35,650 nt of DNA from Candidatus Aenigmatarchaeota archaeon (GTDB lineage Archaea > Aenigmatarchaeota > Aenigmatarchaeia > CG10238-14 > SpSt-28). Position 1 is the stretch's first letter. Each line of letters opens with the position of its first letter. The translations under genes and the position numbers were made by a program. Location: the NCBI GenBank assembly GCA_049976365.1, contig JBMFIJ010000003.1, forward strand, positions 1 through 35,650, given 5' to 3'. Of this stretch, positions 619-21,785 are shown piece after piece. The notes below the pieces were generated by a model that was given only the letters and a program-made list of their open reading frames with translations, was not told where the DNA came from and searched no databases.

Positions 619-1677
619 GGTTTTCTCTTTCTTTTTATTTTTTAAAAATTCTATCAATTCTTTCAAATCTTCAACTCTCATTCCTGCAGCTGTCGGATGC
701 CCACCACCTTTCGCTCTAATACTCTTTGTTATTTCAGAAACAATTTTTGATAAGTCATCTTTTCTTTTCAATCCTCTTCTAACACTGACTTCATAATAGC
801 TATTAGATTTTTGAGCAACGAAAATTATTTTATTTTTGAAAATTTTTGGCAAATAGCTTGCAAAAGAAGATTTCAAATTGTATTTACTTTTAATTTCATA
901 AATCAAGAAATCATCAATTTCTATCTTATTTTTATTCAGTCTTTTTAATTCTTTTTTGAACTCTGTATTAAGTTTCTTGTAAAGATTTCTGATTTTTCTG
1001 TCGTTTAAAACATCTTTGTAGCTTTTAGAATTCGCTACAACTTTACTAGCATATTTTACTCCTTTTAACCCTTCAAATATTCTGCAGGCATCAATCATTT
1101 TTGCAATTTTTCCAATTAAGCTTCTTTCAAAAAGAACCCTATCTTTTATCTTATTTTCTCCAATTAGTTCAGGAAAATTTTTCTTTAGACTTAAAAATAA
1201 ATCTTTGTTTTCTTCAGCTCCAAAATCGCCAAGTGTACCAAAGGCAGCTATCCATTCTATTTCTTTACTATCAAAAAATTGTTTGTAGATTAACCAAGAA
1301 ATATAGCTTGCTGGCATATAAATTTCTTTTTTAACTAACCTTGGATTAACGTAAAGACAATTGTATTTTTTTGGAAGGTGATGGTCTACAATTAATAAAA
1401 GTTTTTTTCTAGAAAGTTTGTTTATTCTTTCTTCTGGAGTATCTCCTATATCAGTTATCAGTATGTTTTTGAATTTTTCTAATTTTTTTGCAGTTTTTTC
1501 ATCTACTTCAAAATTTTGAAAAGAGACTATTAGCTTTGGCTTTAATTTTAATTTTTTTGCAAGTTTGAAGAAAACGGAAGAAGATGCAATGCTATCATCA
1601 TCATGTCCAAAAACTATAGCAATTTCACCTTTAGCTTTTTTGAAAAATTCAATTGCAGGTCTTGTAAAATCTTCCAT
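607..1677 (-). CDS. DHH/DHHA1 family phosphoesterase (RecJ-like)
   Basis: GHDDDS, ITD, VDHH, GTLGD motifs and C-terminal GGGHPTAAG (DHHA1). Confidence 0.88.
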
Positions 1678-11709: not shown

Positions 11710-12993
11710 CTATTTCAATCCATCTTTTGTAATTTTTTCTGCATTTAAGTATGGTTGCAAAACTTTTGGAATTAAAATACTTCCATCTTCTTGTTGATAA
11801 TTTTCCATTATTGCTATTATTGCTCTTTCAGTAGCTACTAAAGTTGAATTTAAAGTATGAACAAATTTTATCTCATTACCTTCTCTAAATCTTATGTTTG
11901 CTCTTCTCGCTTGATAATCTGTACAATTACTACATGAAACCACTTCTCTATATTTTCCTTGACCTGGAAGCCACGCTTCTATATCATATTTTTTAGCTGC
12001 TACACTTCCAATATCTCCACTGCAAATATTAACAACTCTATATGGAATTCCTAAACTTTGAAAGAATTCTTCAGCATTTTTTAGTAATTTTTCATGCCAA
12101 TCCCAACTTTCTTCCGGTTTACAAAAAACGAACTGCTCTACTTTTTCAAATTGATGAACTCTGAATATACCCTTAGTATCTTTTCCATGAGTTCCAGCTT
12201 CTTTTCTGAAGCACGGAGAAATTCCAGCATATAATAAAGGCAAGTCTTTTCCGTCTAAAATTTCATTCATATGGTAGGCAAGTAAAGCATGTTCAGCAGT
12301 TCCGATTAAATAAAGATTTTCTCCTTCAATTTTATATATCATATCTTCAAAATCCTGGAAAGCTATAGCTCCTTCTAATGCTTCTCTTCTTAGCATATAA
12401 GGAGGTTGAAATAATTTAAATCCTTTATTTTTTATAAAATCTAATCCGTATTTAATTAACGCCCAATTTAGCTCTACCAAAGCGTTTTTTAGATAATAAA
12501 ATCTTGATCCAGCAACTTTTGCTGCTCTCTCTATGTCTATTAAATCTAATGGAATAGCTAAATCTTGATGGTCTTTTGGTTTAAATTTAAATTCTGGTAT
12601 TTTACCCCAAGTTTTAACTACTACATTATCATTCTCATCTTTTCCAATAGGTACGCTCTCATGAAGTATATTCGGCAAAACCATTAGAATTTCCCTTATT
12701 CTTCTCTCCTTTTCTTCAACAGCCTTTTCTAGTATTTTAATTTCTTCTGGTAATTTTTCTGCTTCTTTCAAAAGTTCTGAAACGTCTTTACCTTCTTTTT
12801 TCATTTTGGCGATTTCAACGCTTAACTCATTTCTTTTCTTTCTAAGTTTATTAAGTTCGTTCAATTCTTCCCTCCATTTTTTATCTAGCTCTATAACTTC
12901 TTCTAACAATTTTATCTTTTCTTTGTCATTTCTTTTTTCCAGGTCTCTTCTAACAATTTCCGGATTTTTTCTGATTAGATTAATGTCTAACAT
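11710..12993 (-). CDS. serS: Serine--tRNA ligase
   Basis: MLDINLIR, N-terminal coiled coil, LIGTAEH, PCFRKEAG, GIFRVHQFEKVE, EVVSCSNCTDYQARR, HTLNST. Confidence 0.97.
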   Translation of the reverse strand: MLDINLIRKNPEIVRRDLEKRNDKEKIKLLEEVIELDKKWREELNELNKLRKKRNELSVEIAKMKKEGKDVSELLKEAEKLPEEIKILEKAVEEKERRIREILMVLPNILHESVPIGKDENDNVVVKTWGKIPEFKFKPKDHQDLAIPLDLIDIERAAKVAGSRFYYLKNALVELNWALIKYGLDFIKNKGFKLFQPPYMLRREALEGAIAFQDFEDMIYKIEGENLYLIGTAEHALLAYHMNEILDGKDLPLLYAGISPCFRKEAGTHGKDTKGIFRVHQFEKVEQFVFCKPEESWDWHEKLLKNAEEFFQSLGIPYRVVNICSGDIGSVAAKKYDIEAWLPGQGKYREVVSCSNCTDYQARRANIRFREGNEIKFVHTLNSTLVATERAIIAIMENYQQEDGSILIPKVLQPYLNAEKITKDGLK

Positions 12994-13067
12994 CTAAAAA
13001 CACCTCCTTAGAATTTTGAGTAGGAAAATTTTAAAGAAGTCTAAATGGATTGGAGTGGCATCGCCAT
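12991..13067 (-). promoter_or_regulatory. serS 5' leader: SD-sequestering hairpin with upstream ORF (candidate attenuator)
   Basis: acuucuuua (13040-13032) pairs with uaaggaggu (13010-13002); inner stem aaauuuu/aaaauuc; cauuuag pairs with uuagAUG. Confidence 0.65.
13041..13067 (-). CDS. Putative serS leader peptide MAMPLQSI
   Basis: ATG GCG ATG CCA CTC CAA TCC ATT TAG; ATG lies about 21 nt downstream of TATA-like cttaaata (13088-13095), a leaderless-start spacing. Confidence 0.5.
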   Translation of the reverse strand: MAMPLQSI

Positions 13068-13123
13068 ATTTCTTTTTAACTTTAGTATATTTAAGCTTTT
13101 AAAAATAGAAAAAAATAATCAAT

Positions 13124-13336
13124 ATGGCGAGAAAAGTAAAAAAAGAGAGTGCAGAATTTTTGAAATACATTTCTGTCGGAATTTTGATCATAGGTTTATT
13201 AATACTTATAGTAACTGCTTTAACTTGGCAGCCTTATGATCCTTCTCAACTTGCTACCAAAATAAACTTTTTAACACTTTCCTTGGGAATTCTTTACATC
13301 CTTTTCGGTTTTGTTTTGTATAAAATTAAAATCTAA
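13124..13336 (+). CDS. Small two-TM membrane protein
   Basis: Basic N-terminus and two hydrophobic helices; TATA ttttaaaa about 20 nt upstream. Confidence 0.7.
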   Translation: MARKVKKESAEFLKYISVGILIIGLLILIVTALTWQPYDPSQLATKINFLTLSLGILYILFGFVLYKIKI

Positions 13337-16201: not shown

Positions 16202-16954
16202 ATGAGAGTTATAAGCGTTATTTCTGGAAAAGGTGGAGTTGGAAAAACAACAATAACTGCAAATTTATCAGCGACTTTAACCAAATTTGGTTTTAATGTA
16301 ACAGCAATAGATGCAAATTTAACTACACCAAACCTTGGAATCCACTTTGGCTTACATTTAGCAGATATAACTCTTCATGATATTTTAAAAAATGCAGAGC
16401 TCTTAAAAAAAGGAATTTACATTTATCCAGGAGGATTGAAAGTAATTCCTGGAAGTCTAAAAGTAGAGAATATAATTGACGTTGATACCTCAAACTTAGG
16501 AAAAATAATCTCAAACCTTAACTCAGATTTTGTGTTTATAGATTCGGCTGCAGGTTTAGGTAGAGAAGCTTTAGCTTCTTTAAGCGTTGCTGATGAAATT
16601 TTGGTTGTTACAAATCCAGATATACCATCATTAACTGATGCTCTAAGAGCAATTAAGGTAGCAGAAACTGTTGGTAAGAGCATTAAAGGCATAGTTTTGA
16701 ATAGAGTTGGTAGATCTAGGGACGAATTGAAAAAAGTAGATGTAGAGAGTTTCTTAAGCTATCCAGTAATTGCTCAAGTTCCAGAAGATCCTTGGGTTTT
16801 AAGGTCTATAAATGAAAGAAAACCTTTAATCTTTCTGAATCCAAATTCCAAAGCTGCAATAGAAATACAAAATTTAGCATTTGCTATTATTGGAAGTAAA
16901 TACAGAATAAAGCAAAGTTTTATTGATAAATTATTCTCTTGGATTAGGATTTAG
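16202..16954 (+). CDS. minD: MinD/ParA-family ATPase
   Basis: SGKGGVGKTT deviant Walker A, IDSAAG, VLNR; C-terminal amphipathic helix SFIDKLFSWI. Confidence 0.88.
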   Translation: MRVISVISGKGGVGKTTITANLSATLTKFGFNVTAIDANLTTPNLGIHFGLHLADITLHDILKNAELLKKGIYIYPGGLKVIPGSLKVENIIDVDTSNLGKIISNLNSDFVFIDSAAGLGREALASLSVADEILVVTNPDIPSLTDALRAIKVAETVGKSIKGIVLNRVGRSRDELKKVDVESFLSYPVIAQVPEDPWVLRSINERKPLIFLNPNSKAAIEIQNLAFAIIGSKYRIKQSFIDKLFSWIRI

Positions 16955-18565
16955 CTCCATCTCTAAAGCTGCTACAGGAATATATACTTTAAAGTTTTCT
17001 AAAACTTCTGGATTTATTTCTCCAAAGAATCCTATTTCCTTTTTATTATGAATTATTTTTCCACATCTCCCATTAATAAAGCTTGGATGATTATAATCTT
17101 CAAAGCTTATTTCAATATTTAATTTTTTGGCAATTTCTAAAGCAATTCTTTTAACTTCAGCAAAAAAAGAACCAGAAGAAGCAATAGCTAAGGCAACTTT
17201 TCTAACATTTTTGCTTAACGTTTCTTCATTTTTTTCTGGCAATACTACATCTCCAATTTCGAATATTTTTTGGGGATATGGTTCTTTTGTGTTTTTAGAT
17301 AAAAATTCCATCAAATCTGGTAAAAGCCAAACTCTTAATTGGGTATAACTTTCTGAAACAGGATTCTCTATTTTTATTGTTTCTTTCTCCTCTAATAACA
17401 TTTTTTTGAATTGTTTTTCGCTGTTGGTTAAAGCAGGTCTAACAATTTCTTGAAAACCAAAACCAACTAAGGCTTCTCTTATTTCATCAGAAATTTTCTC
17501 AATTGGATGAATTCCGCCAACCGTAAAAATGTTTGGAAGTTCAGGTTCAAAATTATTGTAACCAAAAGCTATCGCTAAATCTTCTACAATATCAATTTTA
17601 GAAATAATGTCAGTTCTGTAAGGAGGAGTTATAACTATTATTTTGTCTTTTTTAAACAAAGTTTTGTAGCCCATTTTTTTTAGCAAATTTTCTATTTCAT
17701 TTTCTTTGAATTCTCTTCCAAGAATTTTTGCAAAATAACTTTTTTCTATTTCTAAAGGCTTTTCAATCCATTCTGGAGTATATTCTTCTTTCTTCCCTTT
17801 AATCTTAACTCCTTCAATTTTGTAGCCTCTTTCTGAAAAAGACAAAACTAGAATGTTTAAGACTTTATTGACTAAATTTTTATCAGTTCCTGTAACATCG
17901 ATAAAAATATTTTTTGTGTTCTCAGTAATTTTGGTTCTTTCTGAGTTTAATATTGGTGGAAAGCTAAAAATTCCCTCTTCATCTATAAAAGCGGGCCATT
18001 TATTTGCTTCGATAATTAATTTCCCATACTTTTTTCCTTTTTCAGTTTTTGCTAATACATCAATTAAACTCATTTCTTCTTTTTCCCCTAAGGGAACAAA
18101 TTTTTCGTTACGAGAAACGCCTTTATAAAAAATTTTTCCTTTTATTTTATCAAAATCATGCAAACCAATGGCAACTTTTTTTCTACCTCTTCCTATAGTT
18201 TCATGAAGAATTTCTTGGGAATTCATTAGACTTTTTATTAATAAATCGCTCATCTTTACATTTTTCACGATAGCACAAGCTATAAAAGGTCTTACAGGCA
18301 CATCTTCTTTAAAAACTGTAATTTTAGAATCATGAATTTTAACTTCATTCATTTTAATTCCAATAAGACCTTTCAAAACTCTAGCAAATCCTTCTATAGT
18401 AAACATATCTATTCTATCAGCAGTTAACTCTACTTTTATTTCCTCTTCTGTTATTTCTTCTATGTTTGATTTAAAAGAGTTTACAATTTCCTCTATTTCT
18501 TCATCTTTTAGTTCTCTTCCTATCAGATTGAACAAATCTTTTTTATTAAAGGTTATGACTGGCAT
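16931..18565 (-). CDS. pheT: Phenylalanine--tRNA ligase beta subunit
   Basis: MPVIT, DRIDM, GRKKVAIGLHD, SFPPILNS, PPYRTDI, DIVEDLAIAFGY; TAATG overlap with pheS sets the start at 18565. Confidence 0.95.
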   Translation of the reverse strand: MPVITFNKKDLFNLIGRELKDEEIEEIVNSFKSNIEEITEEEIKVELTADRIDMFTIEGFARVLKGLIGIKMNEVKIHDSKITVFKEDVPVRPFIACAIVKNVKMSDLLIKSLMNSQEILHETIGRGRKKVAIGLHDFDKIKGKIFYKGVSRNEKFVPLGEKEEMSLIDVLAKTEKGKKYGKLIIEANKWPAFIDEEGIFSFPPILNSERTKITENTKNIFIDVTGTDKNLVNKVLNILVLSFSERGYKIEGVKIKGKKEEYTPEWIEKPLEIEKSYFAKILGREFKENEIENLLKKMGYKTLFKKDKIIVITPPYRTDIISKIDIVEDLAIAFGYNNFEPELPNIFTVGGIHPIEKISDEIREALVGFGFQEIVRPALTNSEKQFKKMLLEEKETIKIENPVSESYTQLRVWLLPDLMEFLSKNTKEPYPQKIFEIGDVVLPEKNEETLSKNVRKVALAIASSGSFFAEVKRIALEIAKKLNIEISFEDYNHPSFINGRCGKIIHNKKEIGFFGEINPEVLENFKVYIPVAALEMELNPNPRE

Positions 18566-19773
18566 TATCTCTCCCTCAACCACTTCAAATCGTCAGAATA
18601 TAAATATCTTATATCATCTATGTTCATTTTAAGCATTGCTAACCTACCTAAGCCTAAACCCCAAGCTAATACAGGAACTTTTACTCCTAATGGATAAGTC
18701 ACTTCTTCTCTAAAAATTCCTGCACCACCAGCTTCAACCCATCCCAACTTCTCTATTTTAACATACATTTCAACGCTTGGTTCTGTAAAAGGAAAATACG
18801 ACGGCTTAAATTTGACTTCTTTTGAACCAAAAATCTTTGCTATTTCTTTTAGATATCCAAGTAAATGTTTAAAACTCAAATTTTCGTCAGCAACTATACC
18901 TTCACACTGTTCAAACTCTATAAAATGTTTGGCATCTATTGTATCAGGCCTGAAAACTTTATCAATTGCAAAGATTTTTATAGGCAAATTTTTACTTTTT
19001 GATAATTCTCTTGCAGATATTGCAGTGCAATGACTTCTTAGAATTAATTTTTTCGCAAGCTTTTCATCCCAATATCCCCATTTGCTTTCATGAGTTTCTT
19101 TTACATTTTTCCAAATTTCTTTTTCTTTTATTTTTCCCTCTCCACTAACAAAAAATATGTCGTGAATTTCTCTTGCAGGATGGTCGCTTGGCATAAAAAG
19201 AGCATCACAATTCCAAAAATTCAATTCAACTAATGGTCCTTTAGCCTCCTTAAAACCTAGACTTATTAAAAATTCCTTAACTTCTTTGATAACTTTTGTA
19301 TAAGGATGAATTTTTCCAGGATAGATTTCAGCAGGGGGAATATCAATAGAATATTTCTTTATTTTAACCTCTCTCCAAAAACCACTTTTTATTAGTTCGC
19401 TATTTAGAACTGGAATTTCTTTTCCTTTTAATTCTTCAAGATGTTCATATTTTGCTTTTTCTATAAGATTTCTTTGGAGTAAAATTTTTATCAGTTCATC
19501 GCTAATTTCTTTTTCTCTTCCCTCTTTTATTTTTTTTAGTGCTTCTTCTTCTGGAAAATTTTCAGGTTTTTTAATAAGCACTATTCTGTTAAACTTTATT
19601 TCAACAAAACCTTTTTTCTTAGCCCAAAGCAATGCAATATTTAAATCTTCAATTTCTCTTTCAGCCACCTCTATTTCTACATTTCCATTCTTTTCAAGAT
19701 ATTCGATTAATCTCTTTTCCGGCAATCCTATTTGCAGATATTTCTCCCCTTCTTCTGTCAAAAAATATTGCAT
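18565..19773 (-). CDS. pheS: Phenylalanine--tRNA ligase alpha subunit
   Basis: FWNCDALFMPSDHPAR, LRSHCT, KVFRPDTIDAKH, YFPFTEPS, AWGLGLGRLAM. Confidence 0.96.
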   Translation of the reverse strand: MQYFLTEEGEKYLQIGLPEKRLIEYLEKNGNVEIEVAEREIEDLNIALLWAKKKGFVEIKFNRIVLIKKPENFPEEEALKKIKEGREKEISDELIKILLQRNLIEKAKYEHLEELKGKEIPVLNSELIKSGFWREVKIKKYSIDIPPAEIYPGKIHPYTKVIKEVKEFLISLGFKEAKGPLVELNFWNCDALFMPSDHPAREIHDIFFVSGEGKIKEKEIWKNVKETHESKWGYWDEKLAKKLILRSHCTAISARELSKSKNLPIKIFAIDKVFRPDTIDAKHFIEFEQCEGIVADENLSFKHLLGYLKEIAKIFGSKEVKFKPSYFPFTEPSVEMYVKIEKLGWVEAGGAGIFREEVTYPLGVKVPVLAWGLGLGRLAMLKMNIDDIRYLYSDDLKWLRER

Positions 19774-19809
19774 AAAGTATATAGCTTCTTACATTAAAAA
19801 ATTGTTGAC

Positions 19810-20562
19810 TTATCTTATTGGTTTGTAAATTTTCCATCCTATATCTTTTCCAGTTAAAAGATAAGCTAAGTATATTCCGAGATATCTAGCTGCTCCTTTA
19901 ATTTTTCCCCATTTCTCAATTCTTCTTGGAGAAGTTAATACAAAAGACGAATTTATTATTTTTATCTTTCCATATTGAGATATTCTTTTAGAAAAATCAT
20001 AATCTTCCAATATTTTTAGCTTTTCGTTGAATCCTCCACATTTTAAAAACACATCCCTTTTTACAGCCATAAACATTCCAGCAACTTGTGGCTTATTCAT
20101 TCTTATACTATATTCTGAAAACTGATTGTAAAACCAATATAAAAAATAGTAGGAAGGCTTATATGAAGATGGGGCAACAGGAACAGAAACTAGTACTGTA
20201 TTTTTTTCTTTTAATGCTTTGTAAACTTCTTCTAGAGTATTTGGCAATACTATAGTATCAGCATCTATAAATACTAATATTTTTCCTTCTGCATATTTAG
20301 CACCCAAATTTCTTCCAAGAGAAATTCCCCTTCTTTTACAAATTATAATTTTGTTCGCATATTTTTTTGCAATTTTAATAGTTCTATCTTTACTGTTAGC
20401 ATCACTAATTATTATTTCATATGGTAGCTTAATGGTTTGTGATTTTAGAGCTAAAAGAGTTTTTTCTATGTATCTTTCTTCGTTTAGAGTCGGAATTATT
20501 ACAGATATTCTAGGATTTTTAACCCTCTTTATTATCAAAACTCTTTCTCTCTCCCTCTCCAT
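19810..20562 (-). CDS. Family 2 glycosyltransferase
   Basis: ISVIIPTLNEE, SDANSKDRT, RNLGA, FIDADT, GGFNE, EDYDF. Confidence 0.92.
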   Translation of the reverse strand: MERERERVLIIKRVKNPRISVIIPTLNEERYIEKTLLALKSQTIKLPYEIIISDANSKDRTIKIAKKYANKIIICKRRGISLGRNLGAKYAEGKILVFIDADTIVLPNTLEEVYKALKEKNTVLVSVPVAPSSYKPSYYFLYWFYNQFSEYSIRMNKPQVAGMFMAVKRDVFLKCGGFNEKLKILEDYDFSKRISQYGKIKIINSSFVLTSPRRIEKWGKIKGAARYLGIYLAYLLTGKDIGWKIYKPIR

Positions 20563-20589
20563 ATATTCTTAATTAGCAATTACAGAAAT

Positions 20590-21732
20590 TTATTGATGAA
20601 TTTTTTTCCACATTTCTCTAGCTAATTCTCCATCATACTTAAAAACATTAACTAGATCTTTGGCCTTTTCTCTATTTTCATTGTGTTTTTCTAGGAATTT
20701 TACAATTTTTTCAATTAACATATCTTTTAATTCCCCAGTTAGCAATTTACCGCTTCTATAATCTTCCTCAATCTTTTTTATTTTTTTATCATCTTCTTCA
20801 AAAAGAATTTTTAGCCACTGAAAACTAACATCTATATCTGGATTGCCACCCAATTTTCTATGTAACTCAATAGTCGGTTGACCTCCAGAAAAGGCATACT
20901 TGTAAATTTTTTCTCTAACGCTTTTTTCATCATCTGACAAATAAATTGCGGTTTCTGGCTTGCTAGATGACATTTTTCCTTCAATTCCTGTTAAAGGCGG
21001 TAAAAACTTGGAGTGTATTTGAGAGGATTTTATCTTTTCCAATTTTTCTGCTACATCTCTTTGCAATCGCCAAAATGGATCTTGATCTATTGCTGCAGGT
21101 ATTAAACATATTTTTTCTTCAAAGAATGTTGGTGCTATTTCCAAAGATGGAAAGAAAATTAACCCAATATTTGTTTCATTCGTGAAGCCAAAAACAGCTT
21201 TAACTGTTGAAAAGTTTATTTTCTTTGCTATTTTTAAGGCTAGAGGGTACATGTTTTTAATATACTCAGTATCTTGGAAAATGAAAGTTTTATTTGGGTC
21301 AAAACCAACAGCAATTATATCTAAGATGTTTTCGTAAGACCATTTTTTTGTTTCTTCTAGACTTAGCTTTCTTTTCGGTTCTAGAAATTTTTCATCATCG
21401 GTTAGTTCTATGTAAACATTAACCTTAAACTTTTCTTGCAGCCATTTTGTAAAAAGAAATGGGATTAAGTGACCAATATGCATCGGACCGCTAGGTCCCC
21501 TACCAGTATAAAGAAAAAATCCTCTTTTTCTTTCATATTCTTCCAAAACTATTTCTAAGTCTCTATGGGCGAAAAAATAGCCTCTTCTTACTAGTACATG
21601 CAAATCTTTGGTAAATTTCTTCAATCTTTCTAAAATTTTATCATCGATTTCCTTTAAGCCAAATTTTTCTATTAAGCTTTTATAATCTACTTTACCTTCT
21701 ACTTCCCATGGTGTTACTTTAAATTCTTCCAT
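20590..21732 (-). CDS. trpS: Tryptophan--tRNA ligase
   Basis: VTPWEV, YTGRGPSGPMHIGH, AIDQDPF, KMSSS, AFSGGQ. Confidence 0.97.
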   Translation of the reverse strand: MEEFKVTPWEVEGKVDYKSLIEKFGLKEIDDKILERLKKFTKDLHVLVRRGYFFAHRDLEIVLEEYERKRGFFLYTGRGPSGPMHIGHLIPFLFTKWLQEKFKVNVYIELTDDEKFLEPKRKLSLEETKKWSYENILDIIAVGFDPNKTFIFQDTEYIKNMYPLALKIAKKINFSTVKAVFGFTNETNIGLIFFPSLEIAPTFFEEKICLIPAAIDQDPFWRLQRDVAEKLEKIKSSQIHSKFLPPLTGIEGKMSSSKPETAIYLSDDEKSVREKIYKYAFSGGQPTIELHRKLGGNPDIDVSFQWLKILFEEDDKKIKKIEEDYRSGKLLTGELKDMLIEKIVKFLEKHNENREKAKDLVNVFKYDGELAREMWKKIHQ

Positions 21733-21785
21733 TAGAGATATTGGTTGCTAATTAAAAATTTAAATTCAAATTTGAAGAATTCTGT

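Follow-up and report, generated by a model that had tools for sequence, protein, structure and literature searches.

A candidate hungry-codon frameshift sensor in the leader of an archaeal serS gene and in related leaders

The serS leader and its short open reading frame

The subject of this analysis is the leader of the seryl-tRNA synthetase gene, serS, in a 35,650-nucleotide (nt) stretch of DNA (hereafter the window) from a Candidatus Aenigmatarchaeota archaeon, a leader that we propose may sense a shortage of seryl-tRNA. The window is contig C3 (JBMFIJ010000003.1, positions 1 to 35,650) of a 571-kb assembly (GCA_049976365.1) of 86 contigs that is 89% complete and has 30% GC, and it carries the archaeal markers L44e, S27e, GINS, a fused primase and STT3; the source is probably a DPANN-type archaeon. 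On the minus strand, the leader lies in the interval between serS and a divergent open reading frame (ORF) on the plus strand that encodes a 70-amino-acid membrane protein (13124-13336). The serS product contains the Seryl_tRNA_N domain and the class II core (Pfam) and scores 567 bits against TIGR00414, well above the cut-off of 302.

The leader is 75 nt long (Table 1). A TATA-like box lies 28 nt ahead of the first AUG of a short upstream ORF (uORF), which has two in-frame AUGs (13067-13065 and 13061-13059) and a UAG stop at 13043-13041. An initial annotation of this DNA, made from the sequence alone, had called the TATA-like box, the uORF, the Shine-Dalgarno (SD) sequence and the serS AUG, and we found all four on the minus strand at the coordinates it gave. 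A loose TATA-like octamer is also present in 64 of 71 related leaders, where it precedes the first in-frame start codon by a median of 32 nt, a spacing that fits leaderless or near-leaderless uORF transcripts. The UCC codon of the uORF is rare in this genome (416 of 8098 serine codons, 5.1%), and a gene for tRNA-Ser(GGA) was found there. All three stop codons are in ordinary use, with TAA, TGA and TAG closing 155, 76 and 71 of the 302 ORFs of at least 200 amino acids.

Table 1. Features of the serS leader and of serS, in window coordinates
Feature	Position	Strand	Basis
serS, seryl-tRNA synthetase, 427 amino acids, putatively regulated gene	11710..12993	minus	Pfam; TIGR00414
serS ATG	12993-12991	minus	read directly
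Predicted hairpin covering SD and serS AUG	12991..13047	minus	RNAfold minimum-energy fold
-1 frame ORF, CCA AUC ... = PIHLDFFKIFLLKILRRCF then stop, 19 codons; no ATG, GTG or TTG	12994..13053	minus	translated
SD sequence GGAGGTG of serS	13001..13007	minus	read directly
Pyrimidine-rich motif TTTTCCTACTC (family version approximately TTTTCTAGTTCT)	13018..13028	minus	recurrence in leaders
Zero-frame leader ORF MAMPLQSI then stop, ATG GCG ATG CCA CTC CAA TCC ATT TAG	13041..13067	minus	translated
Candidate sensor codon UCC (Ser)	13047..13049	minus	codon at this position matches downstream gene across sensor family
C-CAA, near-invariant Gln codon with the C before it, proposed site of P-site slippage (CAA to CCA)	13050..13053	minus	alignment
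TATA-like box CTTAAATA, predicted serS leader promoter	13088..13095	minus	read directly

SerRS is encoded in 56 of 61 related genomes, and we read the 220 nt upstream of 50 of these genes. Twelve of the 50 regions contain a start codon, three further codons and CAA-TCC, followed by a stop 0-5 codons on. These 12 come from this genome, from six of the seven congeners that have serS (the exception being G007) and from members of four other families. CAATCC is invariant among these 12, and their flanks are divergent. The uORF and its serine codon are thus conserved in this genome, in six of seven congeners and in other families and orders, far beyond chance. When we searched this genome for further copies of the leader, we recovered only the one before serS, besides a weak match on contig C15.

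A family of leaders and the match of codon to gene

The serS leader belongs to a larger set of mini-ORFs that read (V)MPxQ-X-stop and lie at predicted transcription starts in many genomes of the class, where X denotes the codon at the position of UCC in serS. Their shared nucleotide core is (GTGAnn)GTGATGCCnnnC-CAA-X, read (V)MPxQ-X. In an alignment of 67 dereplicated leaders, the AA of the proposed slip site never varies and conservation is 90% or more at each of the two C positions, although the codon that ends in the first of these C residues varies at its first two bases. From the leaders we derived three models based on sequence alone (R1, R2 and R3). They matched 52 of 118 genomes of the order (E up to 0.1), in the class 44 of 151 genomes (E up to 0.05) or 62 of 151 (E up to 0.3), 26 of 151 genomes of a phylum sample (E up to 0.03) and 16 of 42 genomes of another order, numbers that at their weak end include chance matches. 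We inspected the matches and removed those that were coding or due to chance (L074, L079, L080, L082, L086, L088, L089, L090, L092, L102, L125, L128, L129, L132, L137, L140, L144, L145, L148, L151, L152, L329-L331 and L337), together with L153, which resembles the start of a ribosomal protein gene, and L160-L172; L077, L122 and L139 stayed unclassified. A pattern scan of contigs gave mostly chance bacterial matches among those listed, the useful one being L234.

Upon identifying the downstream genes with Pfam and NCBIfam, we noticed that the codon at X corresponds to the function of the gene that follows. In serS leaders X is a serine codon in 19 of 21 cases (UCC 17, UCA 1 and UCU 1; the exceptions are L050 and L042), and in pheS leaders, some of which have an intervening ORF, it is UUU or UUC (Phe) in 20 of 20. 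Leaders of other synthetase genes follow the same rule, with ACA before thrS (L146; NF003068, 616 bits), CCA before proS (L150; TIGR00408, 451 bits) and UGG before trpS (L234/L328). The correspondence extends to genes of amino acid metabolism: X is Ser before SerB-like HAD phosphatase genes (six of six, one of them fused to a class V aminotransferase), Phe before chorismate mutase genes (L110 and L336, the latter with prephenate dehydratase), UAU (Tyr) before a biopterin-dependent (aromatic) hydroxylase gene (L149), and CCA (Pro) before ornithine cyclodeaminase-like and ProC-like genes (L154 and L155). The naive chance that five synthetase types would all match is about 2e-7 (6/61 x 2/61 x 4/61 x 4/61 x 1/61), in which the five gene types are the independent tests, the leader counts themselves being non-independent through genome relatedness. 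The initial annotation had proposed that the leader's serine codon senses the supply of seryl-tRNA, and this part of its interpretation appears right, in that for the Ser, Phe, Thr, Pro and Trp synthetases, and for matching biosynthetic genes, the codon at this exact position follows the amino acid of the gene behind it. The leaders thus have the cognate regulatory codon of a leader-peptide attenuator, as one codon and with no run.

Other partners are less clear. They include a ThyA/MtrA-like fusion (Ser), Asp/Glu racemases (Tyr or Phe), a PEP-mutase-family gene (Phe), GNAT genes (Ile or Phe), a B3/4-domain protein (Pro) and a 277-amino-acid protein of no family (Trp). The fusion, a 479-residue protein with MtrA-like, thymidylate-synthase and pterin-binding domains, follows a UCC sensor (L068, genome G102), an arrangement that may tie one-carbon or dTMP metabolism to the supply of serine. 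Genome G234 has two UGG sensors (L118 and L143), each before a paralogous 277-amino-acid protein with no Pfam or NCBIfam match, which makes the paralogues candidates for a Trp-related function.

Variant leaders were also seen. In L042, the serS leader of G040, UAA replaces CAA and closes the uORF ahead of the serine codon; the same genome retains an intact Ser sensor ahead of a SerB-like gene (L059). In L050, the serS leader of G046, UUC (Phe) occupies the sensor position.

Several features argue for a leader motif that is translated, more than for a nucleic-acid motif. An in-frame ATG or GTG with no intervening stop is found in frame 0 in all 67 dereplicated leaders and in each of the other frames in only one. 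Frame 0 stops at a median of 2-3 codons after X and frame +1 at 6-7 codons, and among the 48 leaders that are not of the Tar type (see below) a stop falls within four codons of X in 90% for frame 0 versus 38% for frame +1. At the Pro position all four codons (CCA, CCG, CCC and CCT) are in use, and the sensor codons themselves vary synonymously (UCC/UCA/UCU for Ser, UUU/UUC for Phe). Because the starts are confined to frame 0, frame-0 stops come early, the variation is synonymous and no conserved structure is seen, we consider the uORF to be probably translated; as a predicted ORF, it supplies the short leader ORF of an attenuator.

The same observations bear on the alternative that the leader is untranslated, with the block GTGAnnGTGATGCCnnnCCAA-X serving as a DNA operator at the transcription start, or as a T-box-like RNA that binds tRNA, and the reading frame being incidental. 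Some conservation is indeed at the nucleotide level, since the variable codon nearly always ends in C and CAG never takes the place of CAA, and a T-box-like element would likewise predict the match of codon to gene. Such a scheme is very improbable in our view. The distribution of starts (67, 1 and 1 of 67), the early frame-0 stops and the synonymous Pro codons speak against it, as do the lack of an Rfam match or a conserved secondary structure and the motif itself, which is 5'-terminal, too short for a tRNA scaffold and not palindromic. Tar (TK0271), the aromatic amino acid activator of Thermococcus kodakarensis, binds a palindrome that is unrelated to the block and lies upstream of the B recognition element (BRE) and TATA box (PMC6737238). 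The serS motif lies downstream of its TATA-like box and does not have the TGGACA-N8-TGTCCA form of a Tar-regulated promoter.

The -1 frame, the predicted hairpin and competing explanations

The -1 frame relative to the uORF is open through the leader and ends in a UAG (12996-12994) that immediately precedes the serS AUG. Across the family, this frame closes within four codons of X in none of the 67 leaders and stays open for at least five codons in all 67, with a median open length of 26.5 codons in the 48 non-Tar leaders and 94 in the Tar-type ones. An upstream ATG or GTG is absent from it in 66 of 67 leaders. The +1 frame is closed by TGAs within the GTGA repeats. The -1 stop is close to the main start, at -12 to +30 nt, in 28 of 36 dereplicated leaders, compared with 3 of 36 for the +1 frame; shuffling the segment from X to the start put 4.68 of 36 leaders in this range on average and 11 at most, and none of 2000 shuffles reached 28. 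The zero-frame and -1 ORFs overlap, and the latter is start-less, an arrangement expected of frameshifting. Because the -1 frame is open, lacks a start and ends at the main start, we favor, at a probability of about 0.6, a reading in which the serS leader acts as a hungry-codon -1 frameshift sensor at C-CAA-UCC, translationally coupled to serS.

From the computed features (conservation of the uORF, concordance of codon and gene, a -1 frame that stays open and lacks a start, and the place where that frame ends) we infer that the uORF is translated, that the ribosome slips and later reinitiates, and that control runs in the direction described next. The serS mRNA would begin at, or a few bases from, the uORF M-A-M-P-L-Q-S-I-stop, and each ribosome loaded on it would meet CAA (Gln) in the P site and the rare UCC in the A site. 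With ample Ser-tRNA, UCC would be decoded and termination would follow two codons on at the UAG, 47 nt before serS, leaving serS dependent on its own, possibly structured, ribosome-binding site. With Ser-tRNA(GGA) scarce, the A site would remain vacant and the peptidyl-tRNA-Gln would slip by -1 from CAA onto C-CA, making AUC (Ile) the new A-site codon. In this slip, the near-invariant C before CAA would restore pairing at the first position (G36-C). The shifted ribosome would translate the 19 codons of the -1 frame, melting structure over the SD, terminate against the serS AUG and reinitiate there, so that SerRS synthesis would rise when Ser-tRNA is short. The initial annotation had cautioned that a single serine codon makes a weak sensor, a worry that disappears under a frameshift mechanism.

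In some relatives the -1 frame is itself a coding sequence. In seven leaders (L150, L155, L131, L099, L091, L073 and L156) it encodes a Tar-like ORF of about 90 amino acids with homology to the winged helix-turn-helix (wHTH) of the TK0271 family, beginning 6-20 residues past the slip site, and the first ATG, GTG or TTG comes only at codon 32-96. Each of the seven lies between the sensor and a pathway gene (proS, ProC-like, racemase, GNAT or serS). Small wHTH ORFs in the -1 frames of relatives match NF053753 (the Tar family) at E values of 1e-9 to 1e-23, below the family cut-off. In L336 (G264:C43, approximately 1256-1504, minus strand) the -1 frame behind a UUC sensor encodes a complete chorismate mutase (CM_2) domain, matched at profile positions 1-79 of 80, which begins four codons past the sensor; the sole start codon of this ORF comes at codon 73. 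Prephenate dehydratase with an ACT domain is encoded next. In L328 no stop interrupts the -1 frame of a UGG sensor before it enters TrpRS. We put slightly better than even odds on a more general proposal, namely that a portable, leaderless M-P-x-Q-X module with a C-CAA slip site senses shortage of individual amino acids across this class of small-genome archaea, its -1 frame either running to a synthetase start or encoding a start-less enzyme or Tar-family activator.

Two recurrent leader motifs, approximately TTTTCTAGTTCT and AATTCTAA (13008-13028 in the window), resemble the DNA that encodes K-L-L-V-R and I-L-I-L-N-E at the starts of Tar-like ORFs, the pyrimidine-rich motif being similar to the K-L-L-V-R codons in relatives. 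For the pyrimidine-rich motif, TTTCTA occurs in 19 of 50 leaders versus 1.9 expected and TAGTTC in 11 of 50 versus 0.6 expected. The sequences suggest that the short -1 ORFs before aminoacyl-tRNA synthetase genes derive from truncated Tar-like genes. A stronger version of this idea would make the whole serS leader a relic, the drifting remnant of a larger cassette (uORF, Tar-like ORF and target gene) without function in this genome. Besides the resemblance of the motifs to Tar-like coding sequence, it can draw on the finding that no gene in this genome matches NF053753. We hold it to be extremely improbable, as the uORF, C-CAA-UCC, the open -1 frame and the abutment of stop and AUG are all intact here and are kept in six of seven congeners despite divergence of the remaining leader.

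Further arrangements around Tar-like ORFs were observed. Leaders L066, L067, L085 and L096 contain tandem sensors, in which a leaderless VNVMPYQ-F uORF is followed about 100 nt on by an SD-led MVTE[R/H]Q-F-I-stop; the second sensor stands directly before a Tar-like ORF, and in L067 CGG replaces its CAA. In L178 (G024:C69) an SD-led uORF, MKGVAVLRGEYKIYE followed by a stop, lacks the CAA-X core and precedes a Tar-like ORF and then a 502-amino-acid ORF whose start looks like that of a class I synthetase. This uORF may represent a different leader type.

A number of observations weigh against the frameshift proposal. After the slip, tRNA-Gln(UUG) on CCA would pair at positions 1 and 3, leaving an unfavorable central mismatch, and aragorn called only tRNA-Gln(CUG) in this genome, which is 89% complete. 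For the window taken alone, an open 19-codon frame in DNA of 30% GC is not rare (estimated chance about 0.2), and the case rests on the family. Within the family, the main-gene starts that enter the stop statistics were picked heuristically; the -1 stop lies outside -12 to +30 nt in 8 of 36 leaders, some of which are start misassignments (for example L072), and in L005 the -1 frame ends 29-32 nt early. The short -1 ORFs might in part be relics of degraded Tar-like ORFs. Among the 50 serS upstream regions, two carry variants (CAA-TTC in L050 and TAA-TCC in L042) and 36 have no sensor within 220 nt; in at least one of the 36, that of G035, a sensor lies 350 nt upstream with an intervening ORF.

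The initial annotation had described a hairpin that buries both the SD and the serS AUG, and RNAfold of 13067-12985 returns exactly this structure as the minimum free energy (MFE) fold (-16.0 kcal/mol; helices of 7, 9 and 6 base pairs; loop CCUACUC), spanning from the third base of UCC (13047) to the serS AUG (12991). On its own, the hairpin is no better than chance: its z-score is -1.42, and 20 of 200 dinucleotide-shuffled sequences fold equally well or better. The upper, local part of the hairpin reaches z = -3.2 against mononucleotide shuffles in this genome only and is missing in close relatives; over the 67 leaders, the local fold just 3' of X averages -0.30. RNAalifold of seven leaders of the genus gave a consensus of only -1.24 kcal/mol with other, weak pairing (CUCC..UCC with GGAGG). 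The initial annotation had proposed aligning serS upstream regions for a conserved uORF, serine codon position and stem; such an alignment thus bears out the first two and not the stem. Among the family's leaders we found no conserved secondary structure, individual folds being inconsistent.

These folds matter most for a mechanism that dispenses with frameshifting, in which a ribosome paused at UCC would simply keep the 5' arm (13047-13032) off the SD and AUG. This was the switch that the initial annotation had envisaged, and the geometry is suggestive, as the hairpin is the MFE fold and its 5' arm begins inside the serine codon; the concordance of codon and gene would fit any translation-based sensing. 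To follow the effect of a paused ribosome, we forced the footprint of a ribosome with X in the A site to be single-stranded in leaders with a nearby SD-led gene. In the window this masking raised the accessibility of the ribosome-binding site from 0.30 to 0.40, but the free site is no more buried than in shuffled sequences (0.30 versus 0.30). Over 28 leaders accessibility went from 0.39 to 0.40, compared with 0.40 to 0.42 in shuffles, so that masking frees no site. We likewise found no sign of mutually exclusive hairpins chosen by ribosome position, since the sites are no more buried than in shuffles. Pausing alone would also leave unexplained why the -1 frame is open, lacks a start and ends at the main start, and why there are start-less Tar-like and chorismate mutase ORFs. 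We therefore regard it as unlikely. The sensor half of the initial interpretation stands on the match of codon to gene, and its switch, with a hairpin that is not conserved in the genus, is probably wrong. In the frameshift mechanism, the hairpin may serve to keep basal serS translation low until it is opened by ribosomes in the -1 frame.

We rejected SD sequestration as a general mechanism, given that burial, unmasking and a conserved fold were all missing family-wide. Three further structural candidates were also set aside: a conserved 5' hairpin within the uORF (UGG...CCA), whose pairing registers differ between genomes; a reading of GUGAUG as a K-turn or C/D box and one of CCAAUCC as a T-loop, both made by eye and without partner sequences; and a U-tract terminator, as T-runs are frequent and of no conserved length.

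Control could instead act on the amount of mRNA, with the stalled ribosome protecting the transcript from 5'-to-3' decay or preventing termination at the U-rich tract (13025-13028). Ribosome stalling stabilizes ermC mRNA, the sensor sits at a fixed distance (about 20 nt) from the predicted 5' end throughout the family, many leaders have a run of T4-T8 20-45 nt past X, and a mechanism of this type would work with any arrangement of downstream genes. T-runs are, however, expected by chance in intergenic DNA of 30% GC, their length is not conserved, and neither the frame statistics nor the start-less -1 ORFs would be accounted for. As the sole mechanism we find this quite improbable, although protection by a stalled ribosome could act together with frameshifting.

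Known systems and other features of the window

The sensing logic of the proposed frameshift leader is that of bacterial leader peptides (trpL, hisL, pheL and the pheST leader). It differs from these attenuators in being archaeal, predicted to be leaderless and equipped with one sensor codon at a fixed place after M-P-x-Q; the family has no conserved terminator/antiterminator or anti-SD hairpins, and its output is apparently a change of reading frame. In ermC/cat attenuation, as in the window, a hairpin takes in both SD and AUG and overlaps with its 5' arm the last part of the leader ORF, an analogy that the initial annotation had drawn. In ermC/cat leaders, the stall signal is a drug together with the nascent peptide, whereas sequestration of this type appears in the window as the MFE fold, is neither significant nor present in congeners, and has no family-wide effect. 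Leaderless polycysteine short ORFs of mycobacteria reportedly act as attenuators of downstream genes that respond to an amino acid through its cognate codons; they are bacterial, use runs of Cys codons and involve no proposed frameshift.

T-boxes occupy the same niche, being modular leaders before many aminoacyl-tRNA synthetase and amino acid genes with single-codon specificity. They are bacterial, structured RNAs of about 200 nt that bind uncharged tRNA directly. The serS leader, by contrast, has 75 nt, no Rfam match, no conserved fold and signals of translation, and lacks the hallmarks of a T-box.

Hungry-codon -1 slippage is described in a review as set off by limitation of aminoacyl-tRNA and as needing no stimulatory structure (PMC8211752). 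The slip at a P site next to a vacant A site that we propose for the serS leader would be the same elementary event. To our knowledge, hungry-codon frameshifting is known as an error or a laboratory phenomenon and not as a conserved natural sensor coupled to synthetase and biosynthetic genes. Autoregulatory frameshifting as an output has its precedents in prfB (RF2) and antizyme, where a slow A-site codon sets the efficiency of a +1 shift and the product relieves the shortage. These shifts are +1, take place inside the regulated gene and sense release factor or polyamines, unlike the proposed -1 shift in a separate leader ORF, where one sensor module would serve several amino acids through a change of codon. 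The same 2021 review names fucA1 of Saccharolobus solfataricus as the only reported archaeal case of -1 programmed ribosomal frameshifting (PMC8211752). It shares with the mechanism proposed for the serS leader an archaeal -1 shift that joins two overlapping ORFs and differs in using a classical slippery heptamer and in having no role in amino acid sensing.

A literature search, which surveyed titles and the openings of abstracts and covered few subscription journals, surfaced no archaeal leader-peptide or T-box-like sensor and no starvation-driven regulatory frameshift; as far as can be told, the sensor family is undescribed. How archaea sense individual amino acids and control synthetase levels is a largely unknown field. 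If the proposal is true, these leaders would play in archaea the part of T-boxes and attenuators, and theirs would be the first natural regulon to rely on frameshifting induced by starvation, with an event usually counted as an error serving as a regulatory signal. The design would be simple, a swap of one codon changing its specificity. It could also offer a route by which Tar-type regulators receive their amino acid signal. In the Tar study, DNA-bound Tar was not released by Trp, Tyr or Phe at 10 mM (PMC6737238). Dozens of start-less ORFs, among them Tar-like regulators and chorismate mutase, would probably have been missed or mis-started by gene callers. Finally, uncultured DPANN-type archaea obtain amino acids from their hosts, and the leaders would give a way to approach the physiology of these archaea.

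In the window, neither a scan against Rfam at gathering thresholds, run over its entire length, nor a tRNA scan returned a match. The most enriched hexamers among the sensor-family leaders, GAGGTG and GGAGGT, are both contained in the SD sequence of serS. A terminator scan flagged the plus strand at 13055-13067, where GTGGCATCGCCAT is followed by a T-rich tail; this is the complement of a small 5' hairpin that lies within the uORF, and the plus strand has no gene end in the vicinity.

The initial annotation held serS to be the only synthetase gene here with a long leader, which is roughly true. The other synthetase genes, trpS (20590-21732), pheS (18565-19773) and pheT (16931-18583), share one minus-strand gene string (16931-21732) that runs trpS, a family 2 glycosyltransferase, pheS and pheT, has 53 nt upstream of trpS and carries no sensor leader. 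The window's TrpRS scores 657 bits against NF008924. A CCAATAT at 21738-21744, before the trpS ATG, was considered as a Tyr sensor and dismissed as a coincidence, the gene being that of TrpRS and an in-frame start being missing. On contig C19 of this genome (255-340, minus strand), aragorn called a tRNA of 86 nt whose anticodon is CUA ('Pyl') and whose anticodon stem is badly paired; it is probably a misfolded long-arm or intron-bearing tRNA.

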